Source: Eubacteriales bacterium (GTDB taxonomy: Bacteria > Bacillota > Clostridia > Oscillospirales > CAG-272). From it: a stretch of DNA of 64,000 nt. Below are positions 2,536-17,796 of the stretch, piece after piece. The notes under the pieces were generated by a model. The model did not search any database. It saw only the letters and a program-made list of their open reading frames with translations, and was not told where the DNA came from. Where the stretch lies: the NCBI GenBank assembly GCA_045597145.1, contig JAZODU010000069.1, positions 8,599 to 72,598 of the forward strand. Direction: 5' to 3'. Position 1 is the stretch's first letter. Each line of letters starts with the position of its first letter. The position numbers were made by a program, and so were the translations under genes.

Positions 2536-3732
2536 TCAATCCCCGTACAAGCAACGGATCAGGCGAAATGCCTGCTCGGCGGTGTTTTTTAAGTTGCGAT
2601 AGGCGTTTTTTGCATCCATGGCATCCTCAAGCGTGCACACGGTGCGCAAAACCGGGAAAAAGGCATCGATGCCGTGCGCGTTGCAAGCCCCCGCGTCCTC
2701 GGCGACACAGCCTGCAAACGCGATCACGGGCTTGCCATAGTGCTTGGCAAGCGAGGCAACGCCGATAGGTGCTTTTCCCATGCAGGTCTGCCCGTCAAGG
2801 CGTCCCTCACCCGTTACCACGACGTCTGCGTCCTTGATAATCTCCTCAAGATGCGTGACGCGCATCACAAGAGAGATGCCCGACTCAAGACGCGCGTTCA
2901 GATAGGTCAGAAAGGCAAAGCCCATGCCGCCGGCCGCACCCGCGCCGGGGGATTCCGCGAACGCTCGCCCCGTGGTGTCCGCGCTGAGCTTGGCGTAACG
3001 ATCAAGACACGCGTCCATGTCCGCGATCATCTCGGGAGTGGCACCCTTTTGCGACCCGAACACCGCGCTGCAGCCGCGCTCACCGCATAAAGGATTGGTC
3101 ACGTCGCACGCGACGAAAAATTCACATTCCGCAAGGGCTTCAATCGCACCGCCGCAATCGATCTGCGAGAGGTGCGCAAGCCCGCGGGCACCATGCGGGA
3201 TCTCGTTTCCCGCGGCATCCCGAAAAGAAAATCCCAGTGCCTGCAGCATGCCGACGCCGCCGTCGTTGGTGGCACTGCCGCCAATACCGACGATGAACGT
3301 CCGACAGTTGTTTTTCTCTATGGCGTGCGCGATCAATTCGCCCACGCCATAGGTCGTGGTGACGCGCGGGTCGCGCCGTGCGGCAGGAATGAGCGTGATC
3401 CCTGCCGCCGCAGACATTTCAATAATCGCCGTGCGCGTATCGGGAAGCACGCCGTACACGGCTTCCACACGCTCCCCCAAGGGGCCCGACACCCACGCGC
3501 GGCAAAGCTGACCGCCCATAGCAGCTGCCAATGCCTCGACGGTACCCTCGCCGCCGTCTGCCAAGGGGCAGACGACCGTTTCTGCGTCGGGGACGGCTGC
3601 CCCGATCCCCTCGGCAACCGCGCGCCCCGCCTCCAAGGAGGACACGCTGCCCTTAAACGAATCTATCGCGATCGCTACCTTCATAGATTGTTCTTTTTTC
3701 TTCTCGAGCAAATCAAAAAATTCCACAAACAT
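2536..3732 (-). CDS. glxK: glycerate kinase
   Basis: Glycerate kinase family pattern throughout (MKVAIAIDSFKGS, GGSATNDGG, VVTGEGRLDGQT). Start set at ATG 3732, preceded by AAGGAGA. Alternative starts are 3684 (MKVAIAID) and 3765. Confidence 0.85.
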   Translation of the reverse strand: MFVEFFDLLEKKKEQSMKVAIAIDSFKGSVSSLEAGRAVAEGIGAAVPDAETVVCPLADGGEGTVEALAAAMGGQLCRAWVSGPLGERVEAVYGVLPDTRTAIIEMSAAAGITLIPAARRDPRVTTTYGVGELIAHAIEKNNCRTFIVGIGGSATNDGGVGMLQALGFSFRDAAGNEIPHGARGLAHLSQIDCGGAIEALAECEFFVACDVTNPLCGERGCSAVFGSQKGATPEMIADMDACLDRYAKLSADTTGRAFAESPGAGAAGGMGFAFLTYLNARLESGISLVMRVTHLEEIIKDADVVVTGEGRLDGQTCMGKAPIGVASLAKHYGKPVIAFAGCVAEDAGACNAHGIDAFFPVLRTVCTLEDAMDAKNAYRNLKNTAEQAFRLIRCLYGD

Positions 3733-3766
3733 AATTCTCCTTTGTTTTTTTGATACGTTCATCATT

Positions 3767-3816
3767 ACTGCTGTAAAATGAAATTTTGAGTTTCGCTCAA
3801 AAGTAACATTTGTCCT
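3767..3816. repeat. island repeat unit, copy A
   Basis: ACTGCTGTAAAATGAAATTTTGAGTTTCGCTCAAAAGTAACATTTGTCCT, with internal hairpin TTTTGAG-TTTCG-CTCAAAA. Confidence 0.8.
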
Positions 3817-4166
3817 TAACTGTTCCCCTTTGCGGTGGTGATGGAGGCGATGAGTCTACGTCTGATCGAACCGCATTTGTTTCGCAAATCTTTATACGTG
3901 ACCTCGTCCATTTTCCCTTTTCTGAATATCAATTCGAGCCAATATTCCGTTTCAGAACACTCTTTCAAAGAGATTTCCAATTTATTTATAAAATCCGCTT
4001 TGCTTTGGGCGTATTTTGCTTCGTGAATGTTTGCTCCGATTGACGACGAGGAGCGAACAATCTGGTTGACATAAACCGAACAGCCCTTTATTTCATCACA
4101 AAGATCAGAAATTTGAATTGCAAATTCGATTGCATCTTCACGGAGTTGGTTCTCGTTATCGTTCAT
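3816..4166 (-). CDS. four-helix bundle protein (23S rRNA intervening-sequence protein family)
   Basis: 116 aa from MNDNENQL (ATG 4166, RBS AAAGGAG). Family pattern IVRSSSSIGANIHEAKYAQSKADFINKLEISLKECSETEYWLEL. The longer track ORF reaching 4418 is rejected. Confidence 0.75.
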   Translation of the reverse strand: MNDNENQLREDAIEFAIQISDLCDEIKGCSVYVNQIVRSSSSIGANIHEAKYAQSKADFINKLEISLKECSETEYWLELIFRKGKMDEVTYKDLRNKCGSIRRRLIASITTAKGNS

Positions 4167-4189
4167 TTGATAAAACTCCTTTCTTTTTG

Positions 4190-4415
4190 TCGATATGTTC
4201 GCCATTGGCGAACTCGATATATGGTCGCTTTGCGACCATTCGATATATTTCTCGCTTCGCTCGAAATTCGATATGTTGCCTGCGGCAACGAGGGTCGATT
4301 GCACCGCACTAAAGTAACGTCTCTCGCTTTGCCCACAGGGCAAAGCATATCGAGCGCGAAGTGTCATATCGAACGCAAATCGTATATCGAACGACGCGTC
4401 AGCGGCGCATATCGA
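4190..4415. repeat. dyad array of eight YATATCGAR motifs with interspersed short hairpins
   Basis: TCGATAT occurs at 4190, 4214, 4240 and 4268. ATATCGA occurs at 4347, 4366, 4384 and 4409. Hairpins lie at 4198-4212, 4222-4238, 4276-4288 and 4327-4345. Confidence 0.7.
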
Positions 4416-4433
4416 CATCGAATCCGCGGGTCA

Positions 4434-4555
4434 AAGACACGACGGATTCGACGTGGGGTCAAGAGTACAAAAGGTATATTTTTGTGTCAAAAACGGGGGT
4501 TGTAAGTCCAAAAAGTCTCAAAAGCATAGGGGGAAAGTAACATTTGTCCCTAATT
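4434..4555. repeat. degenerate rlmCD 3'-end copy plus a ~100-bp arm (junction repeat R1)
   Basis: Minus strand 4455->4435 reads HVESVVS. The arm 4456-4555 aligns with 4771-4872. Confidence 0.65.
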
Positions 4556-4630
4556 TTTAAGTGATGCTTGTGAACATAAACTGCTGTAAAACGAACTTTT
4601 GAGTTTTGATCGAAAGTCACTTTTGTCCCT
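4535..4630. repeat. island repeat unit, copy B (permuted full unit)
   Basis: AAAGTAACATTTGTCCCTAATTTTTAAGTGATGCTTGTGAACATA is followed by AACTGCTGTAAAACGAACTTTTGAGTTTTGATCGAAAGTCACTTTTGTCCCT. Confidence 0.8.
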
Positions 4631-4734
4631 GTGCAAAATCAGGGCATTTTATGATTTTGAACACAGATTTTTGAAATTTTACCTCAAAACCACTCAAAAA
4701 GGCTTGATTTTGTCTATTTTAAGGCGATTTTGAC

Positions 4735-4770
4735 TTATTTTCTCGTCAGACAAACGACACTTTCGACGTG
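4735..4770 (-). pseudogene. orphan duplicate of the last 11 codons and stop of rlmCD
   Basis: Minus strand reads HVESVVCLTRK*, against HVESVVCLSRK* at the real gene end. 4747-4770 is identical to 11356-11379 (24/24 nt). Confidence 0.85.
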
Positions 4771-4872
4771 GGTCAAGAGAGCAAAAGGTCTCAAAATCGG
4801 TCAAAAACGGGGATTGTAAAACCAAAAAGTCCTCAAACCATAGGTGGAAAGTAACATTTGTCCCTGATTTTT
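4771..4872. repeat. ~100-bp arm homologous to 4456-4555 (junction repeat R2), ending in a partial repeat unit
   Basis: Shared blocks are GGTCAAGAG, CAAAAGGT, TCAAAAACGGGG, CCAAAAAGT and GAAAGTAACATTTGTCCCT. Confidence 0.7.
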
Positions 4873-4903
4873 CAAAAAAATCTAAAAAGTTACCTTTAAC
4901 CCC

Positions 4904-4932
4904 TGGACATTTATAAAATTTTATGTTATAAT
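4904..4932 (+). promoter_or_regulatory. sigma-A-type promoter of the m5C MTase gene
   Basis: TGGACA, 17-nt spacer, TGtTATAAT (extended -10 at 4924-4932). This favours the ATG at 4963 over 4933. Confidence 0.55.
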
Positions 4933-4962
4933 ATGAGCATAAAAAATGCAGGGGGAAATGTT

Positions 4963-6279
4963 ATGCCTTATGCAATAGATTTATTTTGCGGAGCGGGTGG
5001 ATGTTCCGAAGGATTAATCCAAGCAGGTTTTCACATATTATTCAGCTCCGATATAAGCGATATGGTGGAAAAAACCTATCGCCATAGACACGAACAACTC
5101 GGTCTCATTCAAGGAAAAAATACTTGGTTTCAACGTGAAGATATTCGCAATCTAAAAGGCAAAGATATAGAAAGATATATTTCGCAGTTGGAGATATTCC
5201 AAGGCGAACCGATTCCTGAAATTGATTTGTTGATCGGTGGTCCCAGTTGTCAGGGCTTTTCTCGTGCAGGCCGTCGGGATAAATCCGATCCACGAAATAT
5301 GCTTTTCGGGGAATATGTAAGAGTGGTGAGCGAAATAAAGCCCAAATACATTGTTCTTGAAAATGTCGAAGGATTCGTAGATATGCGATTTGTCGGGTAC
5401 AAAGGTATCACGGGAATCCAGTATCCCGATGGTAGTGTCACACCTAAAATTTTAAGAAGTGAATTAAGTGAAATTGGCTATGAAACACTTGAACCTAAAA
5501 TACTGAATGCTGCGGACTATGGTGTACCCCAAAGAAGAAATCGCGTCATTTTTATTGGCTTTAGAAAAGGATTGACACCGCCTAAATATCCAGAACCTAT
5601 TATTAATTCTGCCGATTATTTAACATTGACAGAAGCCATAGGTGATTTGATTGTCAGCGACGAAATACGAGCGAGAGTAAACAAGCAAGCCTCTCAGTAT
5701 CAACTTGATAGCCAAAGAGGTCGAACTCCGAGTGCTAACGGTATGCCTATAAAGTCAACTACTCCTAAAAATACAGAGTTATCCAAACAAACCCCTATCG
5801 TCATTGAAAGATTTTCTTTGTTTGAAGAGGGTGAAACAGGAACTATGTTGAAGCGAAGAATTTTGGAAAAAGGGATTGATTTAACAGGCAAAAATGCTTT
5901 AATCACACTCTGTGCTAAAAGTTTTGCGATGTCTAACGAAGCTGTTATTACGCTCTTCAGAGAGGCTCGTGCTACGATCACTCAAATAGAAGTTTTGCTC
6001 ACAAAAAAGAACATTCGCCAAAGATGGGCTTCAAATCAGCCTTCTGCAACGATAGTCACAATAGCCGACGATTATATCAGCCCGTGGGAAGATAGGACTT
6101 TCAGTGTGCGCGAAATGGCTCGTTGTCAATCTTTTGATGATTCGTTTGAATTTTTGGGAAAACGAACAACAGGCGGTTTGCAACGCCGAGTAGAAGTTCC
6201 GCAATACACTCAAGTTGGAAATGCGGTGCCACCGTTGCTTGCAAAAGCAGTTGCATTGGAAATTAAAAAAGTTTTATAA
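4963..6279 (+). CDS. DNA (cytosine-5)-methyltransferase (R-M module 1)
   Basis: Motif I DLFCGAGG. Motif IV GGPSCQGFS. Motif VI ENVEG. Motif VIII QRRNRVIFIG. Motif X TQVGNAVPPLLA. RBS GGGGGA lies before ATG 4963. Confidence 0.9.
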   Translation: MPYAIDLFCGAGGCSEGLIQAGFHILFSSDISDMVEKTYRHRHEQLGLIQGKNTWFQREDIRNLKGKDIERYISQLEIFQGEPIPEIDLLIGGPSCQGFSRAGRRDKSDPRNMLFGEYVRVVSEIKPKYIVLENVEGFVDMRFVGYKGITGIQYPDGSVTPKILRSELSEIGYETLEPKILNAADYGVPQRRNRVIFIGFRKGLTPPKYPEPIINSADYLTLTEAIGDLIVSDEIRARVNKQASQYQLDSQRGRTPSANGMPIKSTTPKNTELSKQTPIVIERFSLFEEGETGTMLKRRILEKGIDLTGKNALITLCAKSFAMSNEAVITLFREARATITQIEVLLTKKNIRQRWASNQPSATIVTIADDYISPWEDRTFSVREMARCQSFDDSFEFLGKRTTGGLQRRVEVPQYTQVGNAVPPLLAKAVALEIKKVL

Positions 6280-6313
6280 CTCTTGACGGGGTACTTATAT
6301 AGTACCCCTTTTT

Positions 6314-7522
6314 CTATGATTTCGTCAAGTCATATTCAATAGGAGTTCCTAAAAGCAACGGCAAATCTTGCGGTTTCATTTTAAAAAGCATACCGTGGTC
6401 TCGCCATTTACCTTCGGGGGTGTAGTGTGCAGCAATGTCGACTGTAATCTTATCCGTTTCCAACAGAGGTGCTATTAAAGAAGTGTTCGGATGTTTGGTG
6501 TGTAGTACTTTATCATATCGAAAATATTCAATGCTATTATGAATTTCCGAGACTGCTTTTACCCAAAATGTTTCGTGGTGTTTAACAAGCAAAGTTTGTG
6601 CAAGACCACTGATATACCAAGCGGAAACATACCGTCTTATTTCTTCTTGTTGATACATTATTTTTAGTTTGTCATCGTTCGCCGTAACCTCTAAAACAAG
6701 GTCATATGCGTTTATATGAGTCACCTTTAATGTATCGTATAACTGTAGTCGTGCGACCGTTGTTCCTTTTGGGATTTGTATTTTTCCGTATGCATCCACG
6801 ATTTGTCTATAGGTCATTCCATCATCGGGAACTTTGGTAAACAATGTAGACTTGGTTGAATGCCTAATTACACCGTCACGCGACAAGCGAGAGGTCTTTA
6901 ACTCTATGCCCTTGTAATCAGGCGTTTTTGCATTATTCCTTGAAATACCTAATGCGTGTTCAAGCGTATCTCCTACACCGGGATCTCCGCGAGTAATCGA
7001 AGGAATAAAACCGCGATTATGTATATTCTGTATCTTGTTGAGCAATTCGCGAGCAACCACATTGTCTTGATGGACCGACTCCAGTAGAATATCATATACG
7101 AATGCTTTTTTGAATAAAGATTCTACAATTTTGGCATCAGAAAGGTTTATTACATATATTTTTTTGTTGGCTATAATGAGTGCTAAAAGGTTACAAGGAG
7201 AACAATAGTGGGTAAGTTTACTAAACCAAATTCTCGGGTCGCCCTTTTTTGTTAAAGGACGATAAAGGGAGGCAACGGTTTCTTGTACTTTATCGGGATA
7301 TACAAAATAACTTTGAACTAAAGTCTTGGCGTTAGGACCTTGATTTTGTGCCTCGTAATCGTGTATATCTTTATTCTTTAAAAGTTCGCGCACAGGAGCT
7401 GTTGCATCCATTATAGATTTACCATAACCAGTAGGCGTAGGTACGAGAAAAGCAACTGAAACACCCGTATCTGCAAAAATGGGAAGGAATTGTTCTATAT
7501 CGGTATCGGACATTAGTAACAT
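6314..7522 (-). CDS. type II restriction endonuclease, MvaI/BcnI (MutH/Sau3AI-like) catalytic domain with a ~165-aa N-terminal extension
   Basis: GDPGVGDTLEHALGISRNNAKTPDYKGIELKT matches the (G)xGxxxExxLG...PDxxxIE-x-K core. The C-terminal VDIAAHY...WRDHGMLFKM resembles the MvaI VDIRIGAY...HDHGTAFRI block, as I recall it. The gene is convergent with the MTase. Confidence 0.65.
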   Translation of the reverse strand: MLLMSDTDIEQFLPIFADTGVSVAFLVPTPTGYGKSIMDATAPVRELLKNKDIHDYEAQNQGPNAKTLVQSYFVYPDKVQETVASLYRPLTKKGDPRIWFSKLTHYCSPCNLLALIIANKKIYVINLSDAKIVESLFKKAFVYDILLESVHQDNVVARELLNKIQNIHNRGFIPSITRGDPGVGDTLEHALGISRNNAKTPDYKGIELKTSRLSRDGVIRHSTKSTLFTKVPDDGMTYRQIVDAYGKIQIPKGTTVARLQLYDTLKVTHINAYDLVLEVTANDDKLKIMYQQEEIRRYVSAWYISGLAQTLLVKHHETFWVKAVSEIHNSIEYFRYDKVLHTKHPNTSLIAPLLETDKITVDIAAHYTPEGKWRDHGMLFKMKPQDLPLLLGTPIEYDLTKS

Positions 7523-7561
7523 AGTTTAAAACTCCTTTGTTTTTCTCGATATGTTACCCCT

Positions 7562-7640
7562 AACTGCTGCAAAATGTACTTTCGAGTTTCGCTCAAAAGC
7601 AACATTTTTCCCTAATTTTTAAGTGGTGCTTGTGAACATA
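7562..7640. repeat. island repeat unit, copy C (full)
   Basis: AACTGCTGCAAAATGTACTTTCGAGTTTCGCTCAAAAGCAACATTTTTCCCTAATTTTTAAGTGGTGCTTGTGAACATA. Confidence 0.8.
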
Positions 7641-7647
7641 TCAGAGA

Positions 7648-8916
7648 TTACATTCCGTTATAGTTCTCCCATCTCCACCGCAAGAACTCTTTATTTGTGA
7701 AATCGGGAATCACAATACGAGGAGGAATCAATGCACCGTAATCCATTCTCGCCCTCGAAGATAGTTCAACAATTCCTGTTTCTGAAATACGTAAATGTCC
7801 TGTGTCGAATAAAGTATGTATGTCGGTTCTCATTGCAAATCCGTTCGCAACAGTATCTTCACCATTATACTTGAAGGGTTTTATGTGTGCAGCTTCTAAA
7901 ACCTCGGGCATCGTAACATTTGTAATTACACAACGTTGACAAGCCTTAAGTACTTCTCTTCTAAAGTTTGCTTGATTCGGTCTTGCCGTTCTCATTGTTT
8001 GAACACGTTTTCTTTCAACTTCAGATGTAACTTCTGTTGCTCGAATTTGAGCTAACGCAGATATAAGCGATTCGTCTTTGGGCTTTTGAGCAATGATTGC
8101 AGAAATTTCATCTAGTATAACGGCACTAATAGCATATTTTTCAGCCATCCTTGTGTTGCCGCCTATAAGATTGATATATCCGTAATTTGAAAGGAACAAC
8201 AAGTATTCTCGTGCTATACGCATGTCATTGGCTTCGGGGCAACAATTGGGCCATCCAATTAGAGATATTTCACCTGCCCTATACCAAAGTATGAAATTAA
8301 CATAGTCTTCTATTTCCGCATGGCATCCCGACAATGGAATAATCACTTTTATCAGTTCTTCGGTGGTGATATAACCCTGCCCTAATTCTTGAAGCTTCAT
8401 TTGAATTTCAAGGATTAGCCTTAGCGGATATAAGACCAAATTGTGTTCAAGCCAACGAGCACATTCCTGCTGACTTTGAATTTGGGCGTTAGGCAATTTA
8501 AAGGTTTGAACTGTTATTGCTGCAAACTCGGTTTGCGAAATATCATGGTCGGCGATCCTTCTACCAAATTCGGTTAATTGGATTTGCCCCGAGCGTCCGC
8601 CCGGAGGAATTAATCCCAAGGCTCTCCAATATTGTCCTGAATTTCTAATTAAATTCCGTTCGCCGGCCCTTCTTTCTAAATCCACGCCGACGGAATCTTT
8701 TATGTCATTAGATAAATCTATCAGTTCTTTTGCAAATTCATCTGAACTGTATTTCACGCCCAAAGGCTCTAACTTTCGCATTCTGAACAAAACGCCAAGC
8801 AATACAACGGGGTCATTCAATCCCTCTGTACATTGTAGGCATGCCCATTTCCATTTAAATTCGGGAAAGGGCTTTACTGGTACATAATTTTTAGGTAACA
8901 TATTATTTTTCCTCAA
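7648..8916 (-). CDS. HNH nuclease, putative restriction endonuclease of R-M module 2
   Basis: C-terminal HNH block: FRREVLKACQRCVITNV...LEAAHIKPF...NGFAMRTDIHTLFDTGHL. It is the last gene of the C-M-M-R operon and overlaps the MTase stop by 14 nt. I cannot assign the N-terminal ~300 aa. Confidence 0.7.
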   Translation of the reverse strand: MRKNNMLPKNYVPVKPFPEFKWKWACLQCTEGLNDPVVLLGVLFRMRKLEPLGVKYSSDEFAKELIDLSNDIKDSVGVDLERRAGERNLIRNSGQYWRALGLIPPGGRSGQIQLTEFGRRIADHDISQTEFAAITVQTFKLPNAQIQSQQECARWLEHNLVLYPLRLILEIQMKLQELGQGYITTEELIKVIIPLSGCHAEIEDYVNFILWYRAGEISLIGWPNCCPEANDMRIAREYLLFLSNYGYINLIGGNTRMAEKYAISAVILDEISAIIAQKPKDESLISALAQIRATEVTSEVERKRVQTMRTARPNQANFRREVLKACQRCVITNVTMPEVLEAAHIKPFKYNGEDTVANGFAMRTDIHTLFDTGHLRISETGIVELSSRARMDYGALIPPRIVIPDFTNKEFLRWRWENYNGM

Positions 8917-9829
8917 AATCGTTAAACATACGAGCTACAGCGTATCCCAATAGCGGGGGAACAGCATTACCAATTTGTCTATATACGGACGAACGATTGC
9001 CCGTAAACTCAAATCGCAAAGGAAAACTTTGCACTGTAGCAAGCTCCCTACAAGACATTCTTCGTGCTGCGTTGGGATGCGGCAAAATAACAACTCCACC
9101 TTTGCTGTCTCCTCTTGCAGTAACAGTAGGTGCGGGTTTTTCAGGATCAAGTGGACGGTGACCCAAATAACCGTTAAACTCTAATTTGTATTTTGAATAC
9201 TCATGATTCGGTAAATCGTTAGGCTGGTCGGGGTCAGGAATATTGGACAATGCCGATAAAACGCTTACCCACTTTGGTAAACCGTTACTACCGTTTTTGT
9301 CGTGTGTAGGCGACGGAAATACATATTCAAAATCCAAATCCGAACGAACACCCACAATAATCACTCTCTGTCGAGTCTGCGGAACCCCAAAATCAGCGGC
9401 GTTTAACACTTTCGCACAGACGTTATAGCCCAAATCGCGAAAATCAGAGAGAATCATCTCAAACACTTTTCCGCCTAACAAATTCGTTAATCCCTTGACA
9501 TTTTCAGCCAAGAAAAATTTTGGCTTTTTAGCATCAATGACACGAATCAGCTGTTTATACAATGCGTTTCTTGTGTCGTCCGCATGACGTTTGGTGTTTG
9601 CAACCGAAAAACCCTGACAAGGAAATCCCCCAATTACAATATCACAATTCGGAATATCTGCCTCATTGATTTTAGATATATCTTCGCAAACAATATGGTC
9701 TCCAATATTCTTTCTATATGTGTTTACCGCATCTTCGTATAAATCATTTGCCCAAATTATAGTGTGACCGGCCATTATAAAACCCAAGTCTAGACCGCCA
9801 GCACCGCTAAACAAAGATACTGCTTTCAT
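8903..9829 (-). CDS. DNA (cytosine-5)-methyltransferase (module 2, second copy)
   Basis: Motifs SLFSGAGGLDLG, GGFPCQGFS, ENVKG, QTRQRVIIVG, RRMSCRELATVQSFP and YRQIGNAVPP. Confidence 0.9.
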   Translation of the reverse strand: MKAVSLFSGAGGLDLGFIMAGHTIIWANDLYEDAVNTYRKNIGDHIVCEDISKINEADIPNCDIVIGGFPCQGFSVANTKRHADDTRNALYKQLIRVIDAKKPKFFLAENVKGLTNLLGGKVFEMILSDFRDLGYNVCAKVLNAADFGVPQTRQRVIIVGVRSDLDFEYVFPSPTHDKNGSNGLPKWVSVLSALSNIPDPDQPNDLPNHEYSKYKLEFNGYLGHRPLDPEKPAPTVTARGDSKGGVVILPHPNAARRMSCRELATVQSFPLRFEFTGNRSSVYRQIGNAVPPLLGYAVARMFNDFEEK

Positions 9830-10761
9830 CTGATTACTTCCTTTTCCAATCTTATCAATTCTTCACCTAGTAATTTTGCAAATTTGACGGGAACAGCATT
9901 GCCAATTTGCCTATAACAAGCCCCCATCGCTCCAACAAATTCAAAATTTTCCGGAAAGGTTTGAACGCTCGCACTTTCTCGAATTGTTAATCTGCGTGTT
10001 CCATTATAATGTGGTATAGCACAAACTCCGCCTTTCCCATTTCCCCGCGCCAAAATAGTAGGTGATGGCTTGTCAGGCTCTGTCTGTCTATGTCCCGTGA
10101 AATTGCGATACTCAACTTTGTAAGAAGAACAAATATGATTCAATACAGTATGCGTGCTTGCAGGGTCAGGAAAATGATCGATAGCTTCTTTTATCGAAAC
10201 CCATGCAAGAGGACTTCCACTTTTTGAGTGAGTAGGTGTGGGGAAACGAAACAACAATTCTTTCCCTATGTCTGTTCTTTGTCCGATGATAATAACTCTC
10301 TGTCTTGTTTGAGGCACACCATAATCTGCCATATTAACTAAAGTTACAGATGTGATATACCCCGCTTGTTCGAAATCATTGATGATTTGTCGAATTGCCG
10401 TCCCATTACCCAAGCTCAAAATCCCTTTTACATTCTCTGCAATGAAAAACTTAGGTTGCTTAATAAGTATTGTGTTGTAAAAAAATTTATATAGTTGATT
10501 TCTGTCATCGTCAACAGTTCTAAGAAGATTAGCCTGTGAGAATCCCTGACAAGGAAATCCACCAACTACTACATCGGCATCGGGAAGCGTATGAATATCA
10601 ATGTTTTTTATGTCATCACACACTATGTGTTCACCAATATTTTTTTTGTATGTTGCTACGGCATCTTTATCAAAGTCATTAGCCCAAATTACACTATTTC
10701 CTGCTTGAATCAACCCTAAATCCAAACCACCCGCACCACTAAATAAAGATATTATCTTCAT
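9826..10761 (-). CDS. DNA (cytosine-5)-methyltransferase (module 2, first copy)
   Basis: Motifs SLFSGAGGLDLG, GGFPCQGFS, ENVKG, QTRQRVIIIG, RRLTIRESASVQTFP and YRQIGNAVPV. It has a 4-nt overlap with both neighbours. Confidence 0.9.
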   Translation of the reverse strand: MKIISLFSGAGGLDLGLIQAGNSVIWANDFDKDAVATYKKNIGEHIVCDDIKNIDIHTLPDADVVVGGFPCQGFSQANLLRTVDDDRNQLYKFFYNTILIKQPKFFIAENVKGILSLGNGTAIRQIINDFEQAGYITSVTLVNMADYGVPQTRQRVIIIGQRTDIGKELLFRFPTPTHSKSGSPLAWVSIKEAIDHFPDPASTHTVLNHICSSYKVEYRNFTGHRQTEPDKPSPTILARGNGKGGVCAIPHYNGTRRLTIRESASVQTFPENFEFVGAMGACYRQIGNAVPVKFAKLLGEELIRLEKEVIR

Positions 10762-10976
10762 TGCGCTTCTCCTGTTTCTTTAGTTACATCCATAATATCA
10801 TCAAAACTGCATTCTAACGCATTGCAGATGCGGAGCATAATATCCATAGACACAGTTTCATTCTTGCCGAGCTTGGCAAGAGTGGTTGTTGACATATCCG
10901 TTGCAAGTCGCAGATCGGTTTTTGTCATACCCTTATCTATGAGCAATTTCCATAGTTTATTGTAGCTTACTGCCAT
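10758..10976 (-). CDS. XRE-family HTH protein, putative R-M controller (C) protein
   Basis: 72 aa with HTH MTKTDLRLATDMSTTTLAKLGKNE. It is the first gene of the operon, and its stop overlaps the MTase start. Confidence 0.7.
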   Translation of the reverse strand: MAVSYNKLWKLLIDKGMTKTDLRLATDMSTTTLAKLGKNETVSMDIMLRICNALECSFDDIMDVTKETGEAQ

Positions 10977-11008
10977 ATGTAAAACCTCGTGTTTTCAAAG
11001 TTATCTCT

Positions 11009-11037
11009 ATTATAACATATCTGTCCGCGAATTTCAA
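11009..11037 (-). promoter_or_regulatory. sigma-A-type promoter of the C-M-M-R operon
   Basis: Minus strand reads TTGAAA, 17-nt spacer, TGtTATAAT. A GAGG RBS lies before ATG 10976. An AACATATC motif (11014-11021) overlaps the -10 box. Confidence 0.6.
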
Positions 11038-11196
11038 CAAAATATCAGAGAAAACAAATATTTTATGCGTAGATTTTGATACTCAATCGGTGTGTGGAAA
11101 CATATCAAAAGCCATTTTTATCGTTGCATTACTATTTTCAAGGAAAAACGTGCAATTTCAGGTCAAAATAGCCGTTTTTGTTCGATATGTTATACT

Positions 11197-11248
11197 AAAC
11201 TGCTGTATTTTGATTTTTGACCACGGGGTGAAAATCACTTTTGTCCCT
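11197..11248. repeat. island repeat unit, copy D (diverged)
   Basis: AAACTGCTGTATTTTGATTTTTGACCACGGGGTGAAAATCACTTTTGTCCCT, preceded by TTCGATATGTTA at 11181-11192. Confidence 0.7.
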
Positions 11249-11270
11249 ACTTGAAAATTTGACAAAACAC

Positions 11271-11312
11271 AAAAAAGAACAGCCTTTTGACCGAAAAACA
11301 CGCTCAAAAGGC
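11271..11312 (-). terminator. intrinsic terminator of rlmCD
   Basis: Hairpin AGCCTTTTGA...TCAAAAGGCT (11281-11312), followed on the minus strand by a T-run (plus-strand AAAAAAGAAC at 11271-11280). Confidence 0.6.
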
Positions 11313-11343
11313 TGAAAAACGCCCGTTTTAGGGTCAAAATCGC

Positions 11344-12711
11344 TTATTTTCGGGACAGACAAACGACACTTTCGACGTGCCCTGTCCTCGGAAACATATC
11401 CACGGGCGTCACAACCCCAATCTCATACCCCAATTTTCTAAACAGCGCACAATCGCGGGCGAGCGTATCGGGACCGCAGGAAACGTAGACGATGCGCTCA
11501 AAATTCCGCGCCGCAAGGTACTCGATCAGCTCGGGCGTGCTTCCCTTGCGCGGCGGGTCCATGATGACCGTAGCACCCGAAACGTCACCGTGTGCGCTCT
11601 CTGCGCGCTCCAACAGATGCCGTGCATCGGACGCGTCACCGCAATAAAAATAAGCATTCTCAACGCCGTTACGTGCGGCGTTTTCTCTTGCGCGCGCGAC
11701 CGCCACCTCAACGATCTCGATGCCGATCACCCGATCGGCGTTCTTCGCCATGGAAAGCCCGATCGTGCCGATGCCGCAATAAAGATCCAGCACGGTTTCG
11801 CCACCCGTCAGCGCGGCTTTCTCGCGCGCCGTGGCGTAAAGCAGCTCGCACGCGTCGTGATTGACCTGATAAAACGCGCCCGCAGAAATGCAAAAGCGCA
11901 GACCGCACAGGATATCCTCGATCCATTCTCGCCCCGCCAGAAGTCGGTAGTCCTTCCCAAGCACCACGTTGGTGTTTTGCGTGTTGACGTTGAGCATCAC
12001 GCTCTTAACGCCCGAAAATTTTCCGCACAAGCCATCGGCAAGCCGCTCTTCGTTCGGCAAGCTCTTGCCGTTGACCACGAGGCAGACCATGGTCTCACCC
12101 GTCCCCTCGCCCATGCGCAGATAGATGTGGCGCAAAAGCCCCTTACGCGTTTCCTCATCGTACGCTTTGATGCCGTTTTGGTCGCAAAACGCGCATATGT
12201 ACGACAAAATCTCCCCGAACACGGGGGGCTGGAGGCGGCAATCCGTGCACGGCACGACGCGGTGCGTGCCCGTAGCGTAAAAGCCCGCCACCATGCCGCT
12301 CTTGCCGTTTGCCACGGGGTACTGCGCCTTGTTGCGGTAGCCCGTGAGCCGCCCCGTGGAAAGCACGGGATCGACGTGCACGTCAAAAAGCCCCGCCTTG
12401 CGGAAGGCGTTTTCCACGTAGTTGCGCTTAAGCTCCAGCTCGTGCTCGTATTTGACGTTTTTATACACGCAGCCGCCGCATCCGCGCGCCGCGCAAACGT
12501 ACCCGTCCTCGCGCAGGCGCGAGGGGGTACGCATTTTTTCGATCCGTGCGACAAGGTAATTCTTCGTCACCTTGATGATGCGCGCGTCCAATAGGTCGTC
12601 GGTCACGCCGTCGCTCACGAACACGACCTGTCCCTCGGGAGTGTGCGCCACGCCGAAGCCGAGGTTGTTGATCTCCTCGATAGACAGCGTGATAACGTCA
12701 TTCTTTTGCAT
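11344..12711 (-). CDS. rlmCD: 23S rRNA (uracil-5-)-methyltransferase, RumA/RlmCD family
   Basis: 455 aa with an N-terminal TRAM-like domain, a Cys cluster (CAARGCGGCVY) and a C-terminal SAM MTase (LDLYCGIGTIG, DPPRKG). Confidence 0.85.
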   Translation of the reverse strand: MQKNDVITLSIEEINNLGFGVAHTPEGQVVFVSDGVTDDLLDARIIKVTKNYLVARIEKMRTPSRLREDGYVCAARGCGGCVYKNVKYEHELELKRNYVENAFRKAGLFDVHVDPVLSTGRLTGYRNKAQYPVANGKSGMVAGFYATGTHRVVPCTDCRLQPPVFGEILSYICAFCDQNGIKAYDEETRKGLLRHIYLRMGEGTGETMVCLVVNGKSLPNEERLADGLCGKFSGVKSVMLNVNTQNTNVVLGKDYRLLAGREWIEDILCGLRFCISAGAFYQVNHDACELLYATAREKAALTGGETVLDLYCGIGTIGLSMAKNADRVIGIEIVEVAVARARENAARNGVENAYFYCGDASDARHLLERAESAHGDVSGATVIMDPPRKGSTPELIEYLAARNFERIVYVSCGPDTLARDCALFRKLGYEIGVVTPVDMFPRTGHVESVVCLSRK

Positions 12712-13382
12712 CAGGCGTAAAACTCCTCGCCCGTTTCAAGGCACAGGCAGGCAAGCTTACCGCCCTCGCACGCGCCGCAATCCATAAGGATACTGCCCGC
12801 GCCGCGCTCGATCCTGCCGCTTTTCGTGGGCACGTGACCAACCACGACCGTCTTGCCCTTGACCAGTGCCACCTCGGGATCAATGGGAGAGGAGAAAAAG
12901 TCCTCGGGCTGATAGTCCTCAAGGTCGGTGTCGGGCTCGTAATCGGCAATGCCTGCGTGCACCAGCAGATACTCCTTGCCGCCTGCCTCGACCTCCTCAA
13001 ACAGCGTCATATCGGACAGATAATCCAGAACGCCCTCTCTTTGCTCCTCGTCAAGCGCGCGGAAGCCGTCAAGCGTTGCCTGACCGCCGTTCTGCACCCA
13101 GGCGGTCATCTCGGAGATATAGACCGCGTCGGGCGTTGCGCCGCTTTTGAGCATTTTATCAAAACCGTAGAGCATACGCGCGGCGAGATAGTCGTGCTCA
13201 CCCGCGATCGCGTAAACGTTGAGGCGCACGCTGACGTCCGCGATCAGCTCCATTGCCTCCTCGCCAAAATCAACGAGGTCGCCGAGCAGATACAGCACGT
13301 CGTTCTCCTTGAAGGCGATCTCGGAGAGCAGCGCGCGGAATTTTTGATAGTTGCCGTGAATATCGGAAATAACATACGTCAT
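12711..13382 (-). CDS. metallophosphoesterase (Ser/Thr phosphatase-like)
   Basis: MTYVISDIHGN, LLGDLVDFG and GHVP motifs. The stop overlaps the rlmCD start by 1 nt (TGATG). Confidence 0.8.
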   Translation of the reverse strand: MTYVISDIHGNYQKFRALLSEIAFKENDVLYLLGDLVDFGEEAMELIADVSVRLNVYAIAGEHDYLAARMLYGFDKMLKSGATPDAVYISEMTAWVQNGGQATLDGFRALDEEQREGVLDYLSDMTLFEEVEAGGKEYLLVHAGIADYEPDTDLEDYQPEDFFSSPIDPEVALVKGKTVVVGHVPTKSGRIERGAGSILMDCGACEGGKLACLCLETGEEFYA

Positions 13383-16416: not shown

Positions 16417-16434
16417 AAGAAAGGATTTATACCC

Positions 16435-17796
16435 ATGGAAGAAAACAAGAACCCCGCTCCCGTACAGGAATCGGGCAATCATACCCCCGGCGCGGGCGGT
16501 GAGCACCGCGCACGCCGTCGCGGACACCGCGGCGGTAAAAAGCACAACAAGCACCGCTCCGAAAACGCCACCCCCGCCGCACAGAACGGCGCACAGGCGG
16601 GCGGCGAGCAGAAGCCGCGTGAGCCTCGGTCGGGTGAGCCAAAAAGCAACGAGCAAAAGCCGAACGAGCAGAAAAAAAACGACAAGAAGAACGATCGCCG
16701 CAACAAAAAGAACCGCGATCGCAAGCCCAACGCACACACGCGCGATCACATCTCCCAAAGGGATGACATTTACGGAGACCCGAAGGAGGAGCGCGAGCTT
16801 GCGGAGTGGCGCGCCAAGATCGTGCTCAACGCCCAGCCCGTAAAGACGGAAGCCCCTGCTCCCGCTGAGGAGGTGGAGATCCCCGAGGGAACCGATCTGT
16901 TTGAATCCCCCGTGATGACAGCTCCCGTCTCCAAGGACGAGAAAAAGGTCGAGGTCGTCGGCATCCGCTTCCGCTCGGTCGGAAAAATGTACTATTTTGA
17001 CCCGAACGGCCTCAAGGTCAAAAAGGGTGACTGCGCCATCGTGGAAACCGCAAGAGGTCCCGAGTTCGGCGACGTCTGCCTCGGAAACACTATGATCAAC
17101 GCAAGCGAGACCGTGTCCCCCCTGCGCCCGCTTTTGCGCGTGGCGACCCGGGAGGACGTGGCACACAACGAGGAAAACCGCAAAAAGGAAAAGGAAGCGC
17201 TGGTCATCTGTCAAAAGAAGATCGAGGAGCATAAGCTGGAAATGAAGCTGATCGAGGTGCAGTACGCATTCGACAACTCCAAGCTTCTCTTCTACTTCTC
17301 CTCCGAGGGACGCGTGGACTTCCGCGATCTGGTCAAGGATCTGGCATCGGTCTTCCGCACGCGCATCGAGCTGCGCCAAATCGGTATCCGCGACGAGGCA
17401 AAGATGCTCGGCGGCATCGGTGCCTGCGGCAGAATGCTCTGCTGCTCCACTTTCCTGCCCGATTTTGCACAGGTATCCATCAAAATGGCAAAGGAGCAGG
17501 GGCTCTCCCTCAACTCCACCAAGATCTCGGGCCTTTGCGGACGCCTGATGTGCTGCCTGCGATTTGAATCCGACGTCTACAGTGCCGAGCACAAGCTGAC
17601 CCCTGCGGTCAATTCGACCGTCAAAACCGAGGACGGCATCGGAACGGTCATCTCCACCAACCCCTTGGCAGGCACGGTGCGCGTACTCCTGAAGGACGCT
17701 CCCGACACGCCGCCCAAGCAATATCACCGCGACACCGTTACGGTTTTGCCCAAGGAAAAGTCCCGTCAGGACGTGCAAGCCTCCGAAAAGGCATAA
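16435..17796 (+). CDS. ricT: PSP1-domain protein RicT/YaaT with a long N-terminal low-complexity extension
   Basis: The core from VVGIRFRSVGKMYYFD to a C-terminal CCSTFL/CGRLMCCL Cys cluster is YaaT-like. The first ~170 aa are K/N/E/R/G-rich. Confidence 0.8.
   Translation: MEENKNPAPVQESGNHTPGAGGEHRARRRGHRGGKKHNKHRSENATPAAQNGAQAGGEQKPREPRSGEPKSNEQKPNEQKKNDKKNDRRNKKNRDRKPNAHTRDHISQRDDIYGDPKEERELAEWRAKIVLNAQPVKTEAPAPAEEVEIPEGTDLFESPVMTAPVSKDEKKVEVVGIRFRSVGKMYYFDPNGLKVKKGDCAIVETARGPEFGDVCLGNTMINASETVSPLRPLLRVATREDVAHNEENRKKEKEALVICQKKIEEHKLEMKLIEVQYAFDNSKLLFYFSSEGRVDFRDLVKDLASVFRTRIELRQIGIRDEAKMLGGIGACGRMLCCSTFLPDFAQVSIKMAKEQGLSLNSTKISGLCGRLMCCLRFESDVYSAEHKLTPAVNSTVKTEDGIGTVISTNPLAGTVRVLLKDAPDTPPKQYHRDTVTVLPKEKSRQDVQASEKA

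Follow-up and report, generated by a model that had tools for sequence, protein, structure and literature searches.

A low-GC island of three stacked, recombinase-less cassettes at the 3′ end of rlmCD in an Oscillospirales genome and its probable origin by serial site-specific entry

Three low-GC cassettes at the 3′ end of rlmCD

We have analysed a 64,000-nt stretch of DNA from Eubacteriales bacterium (Oscillospirales, CAG-272; assembly GCA_045597145.1, contig JAZODU010000069.1, positions 8,599 to 72,598; hereafter the window), in which a low-GC island at 3745-11379 separates the 3′ end of rlmCD, a gene encoding a 23S rRNA uracil-C5 methyltransferase, from the host gene glxK. This island probably consists of three stacked, acquired cassettes, none of them encoding a recombinase, that entered serially and site-specifically at a CA dinucleotide of rlmCD through the action in trans of a large serine recombinase (LSR). 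The most likely enzyme is a pair of LSRs encoded by prophages and related elements that integrate at this same CA.

The rlmCD gene (11344-12711, minus strand) has a GC content of 0.59 and glxK (2536-3765) of 0.62, while all the DNA between them lies at 0.35-0.45 (cassette A, 0.39; cassette B, 0.35; cassette C, 0.45). Read along the gene strand, rlmCD with its tail 1 is followed by cassette A, an arm, tail 2, cassette B, another arm, tail 3, a structured array, a four-helix-bundle (4HB) gene, a copy of a repeat called the D2 box and glxK. Cassette A spans 6.6 kb and carries two restriction-modification (R-M) systems, cassette B is 315 bp long and has no cargo, and cassette C comprises the older array together with the Avd-like 4HB gene. 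Each cassette has a replacement rlmCD tail at its start and a conserved arm, with the 19-mer ACCTTTTGGAGTCTTGACC once or twice, at its end. The features at the cassette boundaries are the following, attL and attR being the left and right attachment sites.

11344-12711, minus strand: rlmCD, 455 aa (Pfam TRAM and tRNA_U5-meth_tr), host gene and attachment site
11344-11379, minus strand: tail 1 (attL side), the cassette-supplied rlmCD end HVESVVCLSRK plus stop, with the crossover CA at 11378-11379
4771-4872, minus strand: arm of cassette A, the element side of attR, 102 nt, with the proximal unit at 4771-4792 (GAGACCTTTTGCTCTCTTGACC), the distal unit at 4809-4832 and the box-G motif at 4843-4869
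4735-4770, minus strand: tail 2, the orphan rlmCD end HVESVVCLTRK plus stop, leading end of cassette B
4456-4734, minus strand: rest of cassette B, without cargo, GC 0.35, with a spacer at 4638-4734, D2 box copy 2 at 4558-4637 and the arm at 4456-4558 (proximal unit 4456-4478 with one extra C, distal unit 4495-4518, box G 4529-4555)
4399-4455, minus strand: tail 3, the displaced older rlmCD end HVESVVSLTRGFDVDMRR plus stop

The three tails (11344-11379, 4735-4770 and 4399-4455) are direct repeats that contain the end of rlmCD. A preliminary description of this DNA had read gene ends at 11379 to 11344 and at 4770 to 4735 that share 24 nt, and we found them exactly there: the 24-mer CACGTCGAAAGTGTCGTTTGTCTG is confined in the 64 kb to the minus-strand positions 4747-4770 and 11356-11379, and it had zero matches in 100 dinucleotide-preserving shuffles even with 3 mismatches, so it is not a generic repeat. 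The third copy that had been reported at 4455 to 4435 is also present, but the idea that it is decayed does not hold, since it stays open in frame from 4455 to a stop at 4399 and its peptide, HVESVVSLTRGFDVDMRR, is identical to the C-terminus of an RlmCD homologue from another genome (P0015). Tails 1 and 2 are written in low-GC codons (GAA AGT GTC GTT TGT CTG), while tail 3 reads TCC GTC GTG TCT TTG. The arms at 4456-4558 and 4770-4872 are 82% identical over 103 nt, in agreement with the earlier estimate of about four matching positions in five, and all five blocks then listed as shared are present. The common layout of a repeat unit, a spacer of ~95 nt containing CTCAAAA(A)GGCT and a stop codon was likewise recovered at 4558-4734 and 11176-11343; the repeat unit, noticed at two gene ends, has four copies in total rather than two. 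The proposal that 4456-4734 is a collapsed earlier insert fits the presence in 4456-4770 of a complete leader and a complete arm without any cargo.

Comparison of the island with the whole 64 kb revealed no copy of its motifs (24-mer, arms, third tail, repeat unit) outside 3745-11379, and no Rfam family was found in 3600-11500. Motif scans, together with phmmer searches using one serine- and one tyrosine-recombinase seed, detected no recombinase gene in the 64-kb window. The upstream neighbours of rlmCD are metallophosphatase, NIF3 and TrmK genes, and the order TrmK-NIF3-metallophos-rlmCD is common to the window and to three loci of other genomes (L002, L083 and L202).

The same arms and tails bound cassettes at other rlmCD loci

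One genome per species was scanned, which gave 80 rlmCD loci, and a metagenome scan with the arm motif added more. In the RlmCD homologues of Clostridia metagenome-assembled genomes (MAGs), conservation of the protein body extends as far as HVESVV, after which comes one of a few recurrent, mutually exclusive tails (TRK, SRK, TRRLDVDMRR, TRSDKAT, KRQIQQ, TRRLDNELPMA, TRTFDN and others). Replacement of gene ends by cassettes would explain this high C-terminal polymorphism of RlmCD in the clade.

Locus L001, which encodes P0015, has rlmCD (ending in GFDVDMRR plus stop), a TCGATAT array and a 4HB gene contiguous and uninterrupted, and is 85% identical to window 4455-3769, with the same nucleotide identity (85%) in the tail 3 region; L028 is 77% identical to this stretch of the window. 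Because L001 has this arrangement uninterrupted, the third copy and everything left of it in the window can be regarded as an older arrangement that was pushed off rlmCD. The closest relative with a long contig, L002, contains a 1.5-kb insert with one GIY-YIG gene, which has a cassette-type tail and a D2 box at its start and the same kind of arm at its end, followed by the orphan tail HVESVVCLTRHNELPLA plus stop. One or two orphan tails behind the same arm, with unrelated cargo, were found in at least 12 further MAG species. Serial entry at the 3′ end of rlmCD, with a new gene end supplied each time and the old one displaced, as the preliminary description had proposed, is supported both by the uninterrupted L001 and by these orphan tails.

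Oscillospirales genomes and metagenomes provided 61 distinct arm/tail junctions, with the consensus ACcTTTTGGagTTtCaACCCCCaTTTTTgaCCgATTTTtAtACCTTTTGGAGTCTTGACC/CACGTcGAgAGTGTCGTTTGTCTgAC (the slash marks the junction). Across them the proximal 19-mer is nearly invariant amid variable flanks, a second copy of its left part often lies ~41 nt upstream, and in some cassettes the proximal unit stands alone. All junctions have their left boundary at the same base, and at other loci up to three junctions occur per contig. The arm of cassette A matches more than 50 arms at other loci with 75-93% identity, and tail 1 together with its leader is also found in L026 and L121, whose hosts are only distantly related. 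Thirty-three cassettes were bounded on both sides and measured 297-6609 bp (median 713 bp), cassette A of the window being the largest; their longest open reading frame (ORF) is co-directional with rlmCD in 30 of the 32 that have one. Leading ends take three forms, namely a bare tail, in which the ribosome-binding site lies within the last codons and an ATG comes at once after them; a tail with a spacer and a D2 box; and a tail inside a hairpin followed by an array of 8-mers and hairpins. The cargo is diverse and includes R-M systems (window, L026, L121), nucleases, membrane proteins, Avd-like genes or nothing at all. Neither the arm nor the arm with its tail matched anything in viral contigs, GenBank phages or plasmids.

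Comparison of related strains, a check suggested in the preliminary description, showed that strains with an identical RlmCD differ at arm/tail boundaries and that the same repeats enclose other cargo, so that the cargo is polymorphic. Six contigs encode an identical RlmCD (P0118). In three of them (L083, L084 and L085) the first cassette is identical as well, and their sequences part precisely at the arm or tail, where one runs on into a tail of the cassette type and another into a tail of the array type; L084 is without both. The same cargo and arm stand before different tails in L047/L090/L133, in L162/L164 and in L115/L163, and L026, with an RlmCD only 52% identical to that of the window, has another R-M cassette that begins with a related leader.

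Some further observations were made at these loci. A 93-aa GIY-YIG (URI-type) gene lies directly before the arm in at least three unrelated contexts (L042 12842-13123, L083 12540-12821 and L112), and in L083 it is preceded by a GC-rich repeat-like stretch (..GTCATCCTGAGTGGAGCGAAGCGGAATCGAA..). L081 has a second arm family (..ATTCACNNNATTGYCCCAAGG/CAY) before two orphan tails, at 12460-12513 and 13330-13380; this family resembles the host FPR codons minus ThrGly, which implies more than one kind of junction at the rlmCD site. In the Ga0315911 contigs (L092, L094, L142, L149, L150 and L159) the arm pattern matched an unrelated 124-nt tandem repeat (..CACCTTTTGTCATCCTGACC/CATGGAGTCAGGTGACATGCGGGG..), present in at most 3 copies per contig, with an internal palindrome (CCTGAC..GTCAGG) and no link to rlmCD. 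Finally, ORFs of ~620 aa convergent with rlmCD in L024 and L054 were set aside as spurious: they have no Pfam match, are mutually unrelated and run antisense to GC-rich genes.

The exchange point is a CA dinucleotide also used by recombinase pairs

Contigs L209 and L220, from two samples, carry in rlmCD orientation small ORFs, an LSR gene of 490 aa, an LSR gene of 536 aa, two cargo genes, a canonical two-unit arm joined to an array-type tail, the array and a 4HB gene; a spurious ORF across an arm had led to L209. Identity between the two LSRs is 31%, and the NCBIfam models that they match best, CcrB, CcrC and XisF, are matched well under the cut-offs (for the CcrB model, 146 and 115 bits vs 900); judged from their sequences, the paired recombinases are LSRs and not Ccr orthologues. 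A 68%-identical homologue (P0139) was found on 19 contigs, each time as the second member of an LSR gene pair that closes the right end of a prophage, downstream of tail-fibre genes. One and the same right arm of this prophage (...CAGCCAACTGTCCCCCGGTGC) is joined to four rlmCD tails of different sequence (CACGTTAAAACC..., CACATCGAAAGT..., CATGTTGAAACG... and CACGTTGAAACT...). Since the four tails differ from base 3 on, the exchange must fall within their first two bases, CA, which belong to the His codon. For the window, comparison of attL with attR places the exchange inside CACGTCGAA, and the only base pairs necessarily shared at both junctions are CA. Insertion thus occurred not at the stop codon, as had first been thought, but in a His codon 11 codons before it. 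A crossover of 2 bp is a hallmark of serine recombinases, and its confinement to CA does not fit the 6-8-bp overlap of tyrosine recombinases.

Other LSR genes are associated with the same gene. In L043 (Clostridium minihomine) a CcrB-like LSR gene overlaps the 3′ end of rlmCD, and Ruminococcus phage NatCom_38182 adjoins the 3′ end of rumA and carries LSRs. Except for L043, no recombinase was found in L001-L201 by motif scans and phmmer, the search for tyrosine recombinases being of limited sensitivity. Previous studies have described rumA as the target of single serine integrases of streptococcal integrative and conjugative elements (ICEs) as well as of CTn5, which replace the C-terminus of RumA (PMC4701971), rlmD/rum as a site of phage-ICE accretion (PMC13651849) and prophages located between rlmCD and fosX in Listeria (PMC8386393). 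As a separate observation, an EcoRV-family endonuclease and a Dam-like methylase are encoded as a pair in L211 (13463-15164), downstream of an LSR-pair prophage junction in an rlmCD-distal stack.

According to the mechanism that we propose, a cassette would enter at CA in the His codon of HVESVV, a conserved motif at the C-terminal end of rlmCD. The leading end of the cassette is a copy of the last ~11 rlmCD codons (the tail) and its trailing end the non-coding arm, so that recombination of a circular cassette, carrying arm-CA-tail, with the chromosomal rlmCD-CA-tail would join the cassette tail to rlmCD and leave the gene intact, while the previous rlmCD tail would be displaced downstream and come to lie behind the arm. 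The likeness of the new rlmCD end to the old one would make the site reusable, and the newest cassette would adjoin the gene (A, then B, then the array module). We infer that LSR pairs move small cassettes in this manner, through circular arm-CA-tail intermediates.

Alternative explanations for the stacked cassettes

The cassettes might instead have been exchanged by RecA-type homologous recombination alone, from linear DNA brought in by transformation or transduction, with rlmCD and the arm-tail junctions serving as homology. The junctions, of ~60-130 nt, are indeed 75-93% identical between cassettes, two window tails share 24 identical bases, almost no array has a recombinase nearby, and L084, which is without arm and tail, looks like an ordinary deletion. 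Nevertheless we consider this explanation unlikely: the block-wise conservation of the arm, with a 19-mer amid variable flanks, is what a protein-binding site would show rather than drifting homology, and the left boundary of every junction is at the same base. Furthermore, homologous recombination would not join one phage arm to tails that differ already at base 3, and it leaves aside that LSR-encoding elements share the same point and arm.

It is very unlikely that a host-encoded or otherwise remote tyrosine recombinase of the integron, Xer or lambda type is responsible, in which case the 19-mers would be arm-type sites and the LSR phages would merely share the hotspot. Small cassettes arrayed in the orientation of the gene, often with a ribosome-binding site within the tail, do recall integrons, direct repeats ~41 nt apart beside a core recall the arm-type sites of the lambda family, and no recombinase gene adjoins the arrays. 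However, single-strand folding like that of attC is not seen for the arm with a simple tail, whichever strand is taken (z +0.04 to +1.4); the window and the array-adjacent loci yielded no tyrosine-recombinase motif, with the limited sensitivity already mentioned; the crossover is confined to 2 bp where an overlap of 6-8 bp is required; and in two samples an LSR pair is carried on the same DNA as the canonical arm.

Furuta, Abe and Kobayashi are said to have reported in 2010 R-M gene units inserted with long target duplication, in which, as here, direct repeats flank the R-M genes, the repeats of the window being instead element-borne and shared with cassettes without R-M genes. Such an insertion, or a local tandem duplication of the rlmCD end, is suggested by the two R-M systems of cassette A, directly flanked by repeats, and by segment B, which can be read as a 314-315-bp tandem duplication, but it is hardly credible given that tails 1 and 2 differ in their codons from the displaced tail 3, so that the duplicated sequence is not the host target, that the arms are absent from the uninterrupted L001, that identical ends flank non-R-M cargo in dozens of loci and that parts of B are closer to other genomes than to the window copies. 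The preliminary description had left both options side by side, an attL/attR-like pattern and a long target duplication; the comparative data uphold the former and speak against the latter, the identical 24-mers being both element-borne and L001 being without arms. Two other candidates were rejected. The arm is not the 3′ remnant of an integrase gene, as a search of all arm-tail frames against 5.8 billion proteins returned 15 small spurious ORFs and no recombinase, and no protein of that collection ends in arm-encoded peptides. A transposon or a miniature inverted-repeat transposable element was discarded because no inverted repeat joins the cassette ends, the symmetry of the site is at chance level and only CA is necessarily shared.

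Serial site-specific entry with an LSR acting in trans has to be weighed against several observations that do not favour it. The 64-kb window has no recombinase gene, so that activity in this genome is putative. The prophage with four junctions has an arm unlike the cassette arm, and the L209/L220 element is cut at its left end, so that its own attL lies beyond the contigs and its mobility is presumptive. The rlmCD side of the site is free to vary at wobble positions, which bears on how the enzyme would read attB, the chromosomal site. The dyad symmetry of arm and tail around CA is no better than that of shuffles: the best centre lies 1 nt into the tail, with 10 of 23 matches, and 90% of shuffles do as well. 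The arm of cassette B, with its extra C at the junction, may be inactive. In addition, neither an excised circle nor a terminal overlap was found among short metagenome contigs, and exact-protein look-ups with RlmCD and the 4HB protein recovered no other strain of the same species, with an empty site or otherwise.

Cargo of cassette A and the D2 box

The leader of cassette A is 85% identical to L121 over 616 nt and 81% identical to L026 over 324 nt. Behind it, cassette A carries the two R-M systems, separated by a D2 box.

11176-11343, minus strand: leader of cassette A, a 91-nt spacer (11253-11343) and D2 box copy 4 (11176-11252)
7648-11037, minus strand: R-M system 2 (Pfam; promoter scan)
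11009-11037, minus strand: promoter-like site of R-M system 2 (11/12 in the scan, with TG)
10758-10976, minus strand: helix-turn-helix controller gene of R-M system 2 (Pfam)
9826-10761 and 8903-9829, minus strand: C5 DNA methyltransferase genes of R-M system 2 (Pfam)
7648-8916, minus strand: HNH/AlwI-like endonuclease gene of R-M system 2 (Pfam)
7541-7640, minus strand: D2 box copy 3 together with a 45-nt stretch, between the two R-M systems and upstream of the MvaI/BcnI-family gene
4904-7522, both strands: R-M system 1 (Pfam; scans)
6314-7522, minus strand: MvaI/BcnI-family endonuclease gene of R-M system 1 (Pfam)
6288-6308, both strands: bidirectional terminator of R-M system 1 (scan)
4933-6279, plus strand: C5 methyltransferase gene of R-M system 1, convergent with the MvaI/BcnI-family gene (Pfam), with a promoter-like site at 4904-4932

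The controller protein of R-M system 2 is 95.5% identical in amino acids to that of L121, while the L121 methylase behind it is only 36-38% identical (L121 3677-4304 vs window 10788-11400); from these identities, R-M modules appear to have been swapped behind a conserved control region. The two methyltransferase genes of this system are tandem paralogues that overlap by 4 nt, with stretches 71-93% identical at a spacing of 932 nt. Paired methyltransferases together with an HNH/AlwI-like endonuclease suggest an asymmetric recognition site with one methylase per strand.

The D2 box is an 80-nt sequence with four copies in the island (3745-3824, 4558-4637, 7541-7620 and 11176-11252). It consists of AGGGACAAATGTTACTTTTGAGCGAAACTCAAAA..TTTTACAGCAGT..TAACATATCGA and then a ribosome-binding site, and it is found at more than 20 other loci, before cargo genes in many cassettes and after 4HB genes; a D2-like box lies also behind the 4HB gene of L001. 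A small AT-rich hairpin within it is kept despite sequence changes, and simple consensus scans identified it neither as a sigma-70 promoter nor as an intrinsic terminator. The 45-nt stretch that accompanies copy 3 is 93% identical to 4534-4578. The contiguous block of arm/tail, spacer and D2 box seen in cassette B recurs in L170, L099, L196, L115 and L007.

The array, the tail hairpin and the Avd-like gene of cassette C

The oldest part of the island, left of the arm of cassette B, contains a hairpin that overlaps tail 3, an array, a gene and the last D2 box.

4415-4454, minus strand: tail 3 hairpin, whose 5′ half is the HVESVV coding sequence
4190-4434, minus strand: structured array of 245 nt that ends at the ribosome-binding site of the 4HB gene
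3816-4166, minus strand: four-helix-bundle gene (PF05635, Avd-like; 116 aa from the ATG at 4166; Pfam 1.4e-22)
3745-3824, minus strand: D2 box copy 1, where the low-GC island ends, just upstream of the host glxK

On the gene strand, the array is composed of four TCGATAT units, each with a small hairpin after it, a centre, and four inverted ATATCGA units, each preceded by a small hairpin. Its RNA fold has a z of -5.4 in the window and of -8.3 in L001, and no Rfam family matched it. The 4HB gene stands behind the array also in L001, L028 and 15 other loci. The array architecture itself is present in at least 20 loci between rlmCD tails and Avd-like 4HB genes (window, L001 2826-3060, L028, L031 and 16 others), with five kinds of unit (TCGATAT, ATGAATT, AGTGAAG, CGTGATA and GCGATAT) in one architecture: about four direct 7-8-mers, a small GC-rich hairpin coming after each, a centre, and two to four inverted copies, each preceded by a hairpin. 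The window and L001 have entirely different hairpin sequences but retain the hairpins.

In array-type tails, the last rlmCD codons (HVESVV..) form the 5′ half of a 17-19-bp hairpin (window 4415-4454, L001 2788-2827, L014 12681-12716), whose 3′ half encodes in frame the odd tail peptides TFDN, RLDN, GFDV and QIQQ. The crossover CA is at the foot of this stem, and compensatory changes were observed at three pairs among four sequences. The combination of an Avd-like gene, a gene 3′ end and a hairpin had raised the possibility of a diversity-generating retroelement, which was rejected: both a reverse transcriptase and a template repeat are missing, and the tail differences are not adenine-specific. 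Elsewhere in the window, an A-rich coding stretch at 16430-16760 (plus strand; AT skew 0.455) corresponds to a Lys/Asn/Glu-rich N-terminal low-complexity region that looks ordinary; the protein is a PSP1-domain protein by synteny with L002.

Discussion

We regard the locus as one local instance of a widespread family of cassettes, present in many Clostridia of gut and rumen, that accretes site-specifically at the 3′ end of a gene. Integration at a gene 3′ end, replacement of the gene tail and tandem pile-up are already known from the staphylococcal cassette chromosome (SCC) at rlmH, from the accretion of ICEs and cis-mobilizable elements (CIMEs) and from rumA elements. As for the cassette class and the arm motif, literature searches yielded only autonomous rumA/rlmD elements and SCC and no description. 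Thus, what is apparently undescribed is the occurrence in dozens of Clostridia species of arrays of tiny, mostly single-gene, gene-oriented cassettes, with a shared 19-mer arm, a 2-bp crossover in rlmCD and recombinases that lie on prophages and not on the cassettes.

The ccrA and ccrB genes of SCC encode LSRs as an adjacent pair, a pairing that the LSR pairs of the related elements (490+536 and 492+555 aa) parallel. SCC and pseudo-SCC at orfX/rlmH are the closest analogue: both families insert at the 3′ end of a 23S rRNA methyltransferase gene with the frame kept, have direct repeats that contain the last codons of the gene and its stop, accrete in tandem, and place recombinase-less elements beside recombinase-carrying ones (PMC7029136). 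As in pseudo-SCC, the window has no ccr-type genes, the LSR pair being carried by L209/L220 and the P0139 prophage. Unlike SCC, the target is rlmCD and not rlmH, the sequences are different, the hosts are Oscillospirales, and in place of 20-60 kb islands the units are mostly tiny single-gene cassettes, with prophage-like recombinase carriers.

Serine-integrase ICEs and prophages at rumA/rlmD share with the cassettes the target gene and its 3′ part, a very short core there (here, junctions at the CA of the His codon), a serine recombinase and replacement of the RumA C-terminus, and elements of this type were found among our loci (L043, Ruminococcus phage NatCom_38182 and the P0139 prophage). 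Those elements, however, are autonomous, measure 20-60 kb and encode a single integrase or a triplet, whereas cassettes A, B and C encode no LSR; and while the streptococcal att site lies inside the integrase gene, the window cassettes use a dedicated non-coding arm.

CIMEs can carry R-M systems. At the fda 3′ end of Streptococcus thermophilus, ICESt1 and ICESt3 accrete with CIMEs (Pavlovic 2004 and Bellanger 2011, cited after PMC13651849), and CIMEs resemble the cassettes in being integrase-less, att-bounded elements stacked in tandem with related elements at a gene 3′ end. In that system, the integrase is of the tyrosine type, the target is another one and the elements are large, and arrays of small cassettes are not known from it. 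A CIME is defined by att sites that match those of an autonomous element able to mobilize it; the cassette arm is shared with the LSR-pair element L209/L220, a candidate for such a role, whose left end lies outside the contigs. The likeness to integrons consists in an ordered, one-orientation array of small cassettes, often promoterless, with the newest at a fixed entry point and transcription from upstream. Unlike in an integron, there is no adjacent IntI and no folded attC, only array-type tails containing a hairpin; the crossover is of 2 bp, and cassettes enter within a housekeeping gene, the end of which is replaced by each of them.

It is conceivable, though we advance the idea tentatively, that Oscillospirales of gut and rumen possess an integron-like platform of expressed cassettes run by a prophage LSR pair that recombines at the CA of one rlmCD codon, in which tiny non-autonomous cassettes have adopted the arm of the phage and the rlmCD tail and are stockpiled and shuffled behind this housekeeping gene. 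The short attB/attP pair and the LSR pair would be candidate genome-engineering tools for these organisms. If this view is correct, the rlmCD cassettes would represent a second, mechanistically different route to integron-like gene stockpiling, and the 3′ end of rlmCD would offer a defined hotspot in which to seek accessory genes, those of defence among them, of gut anaerobes that are hard to culture.

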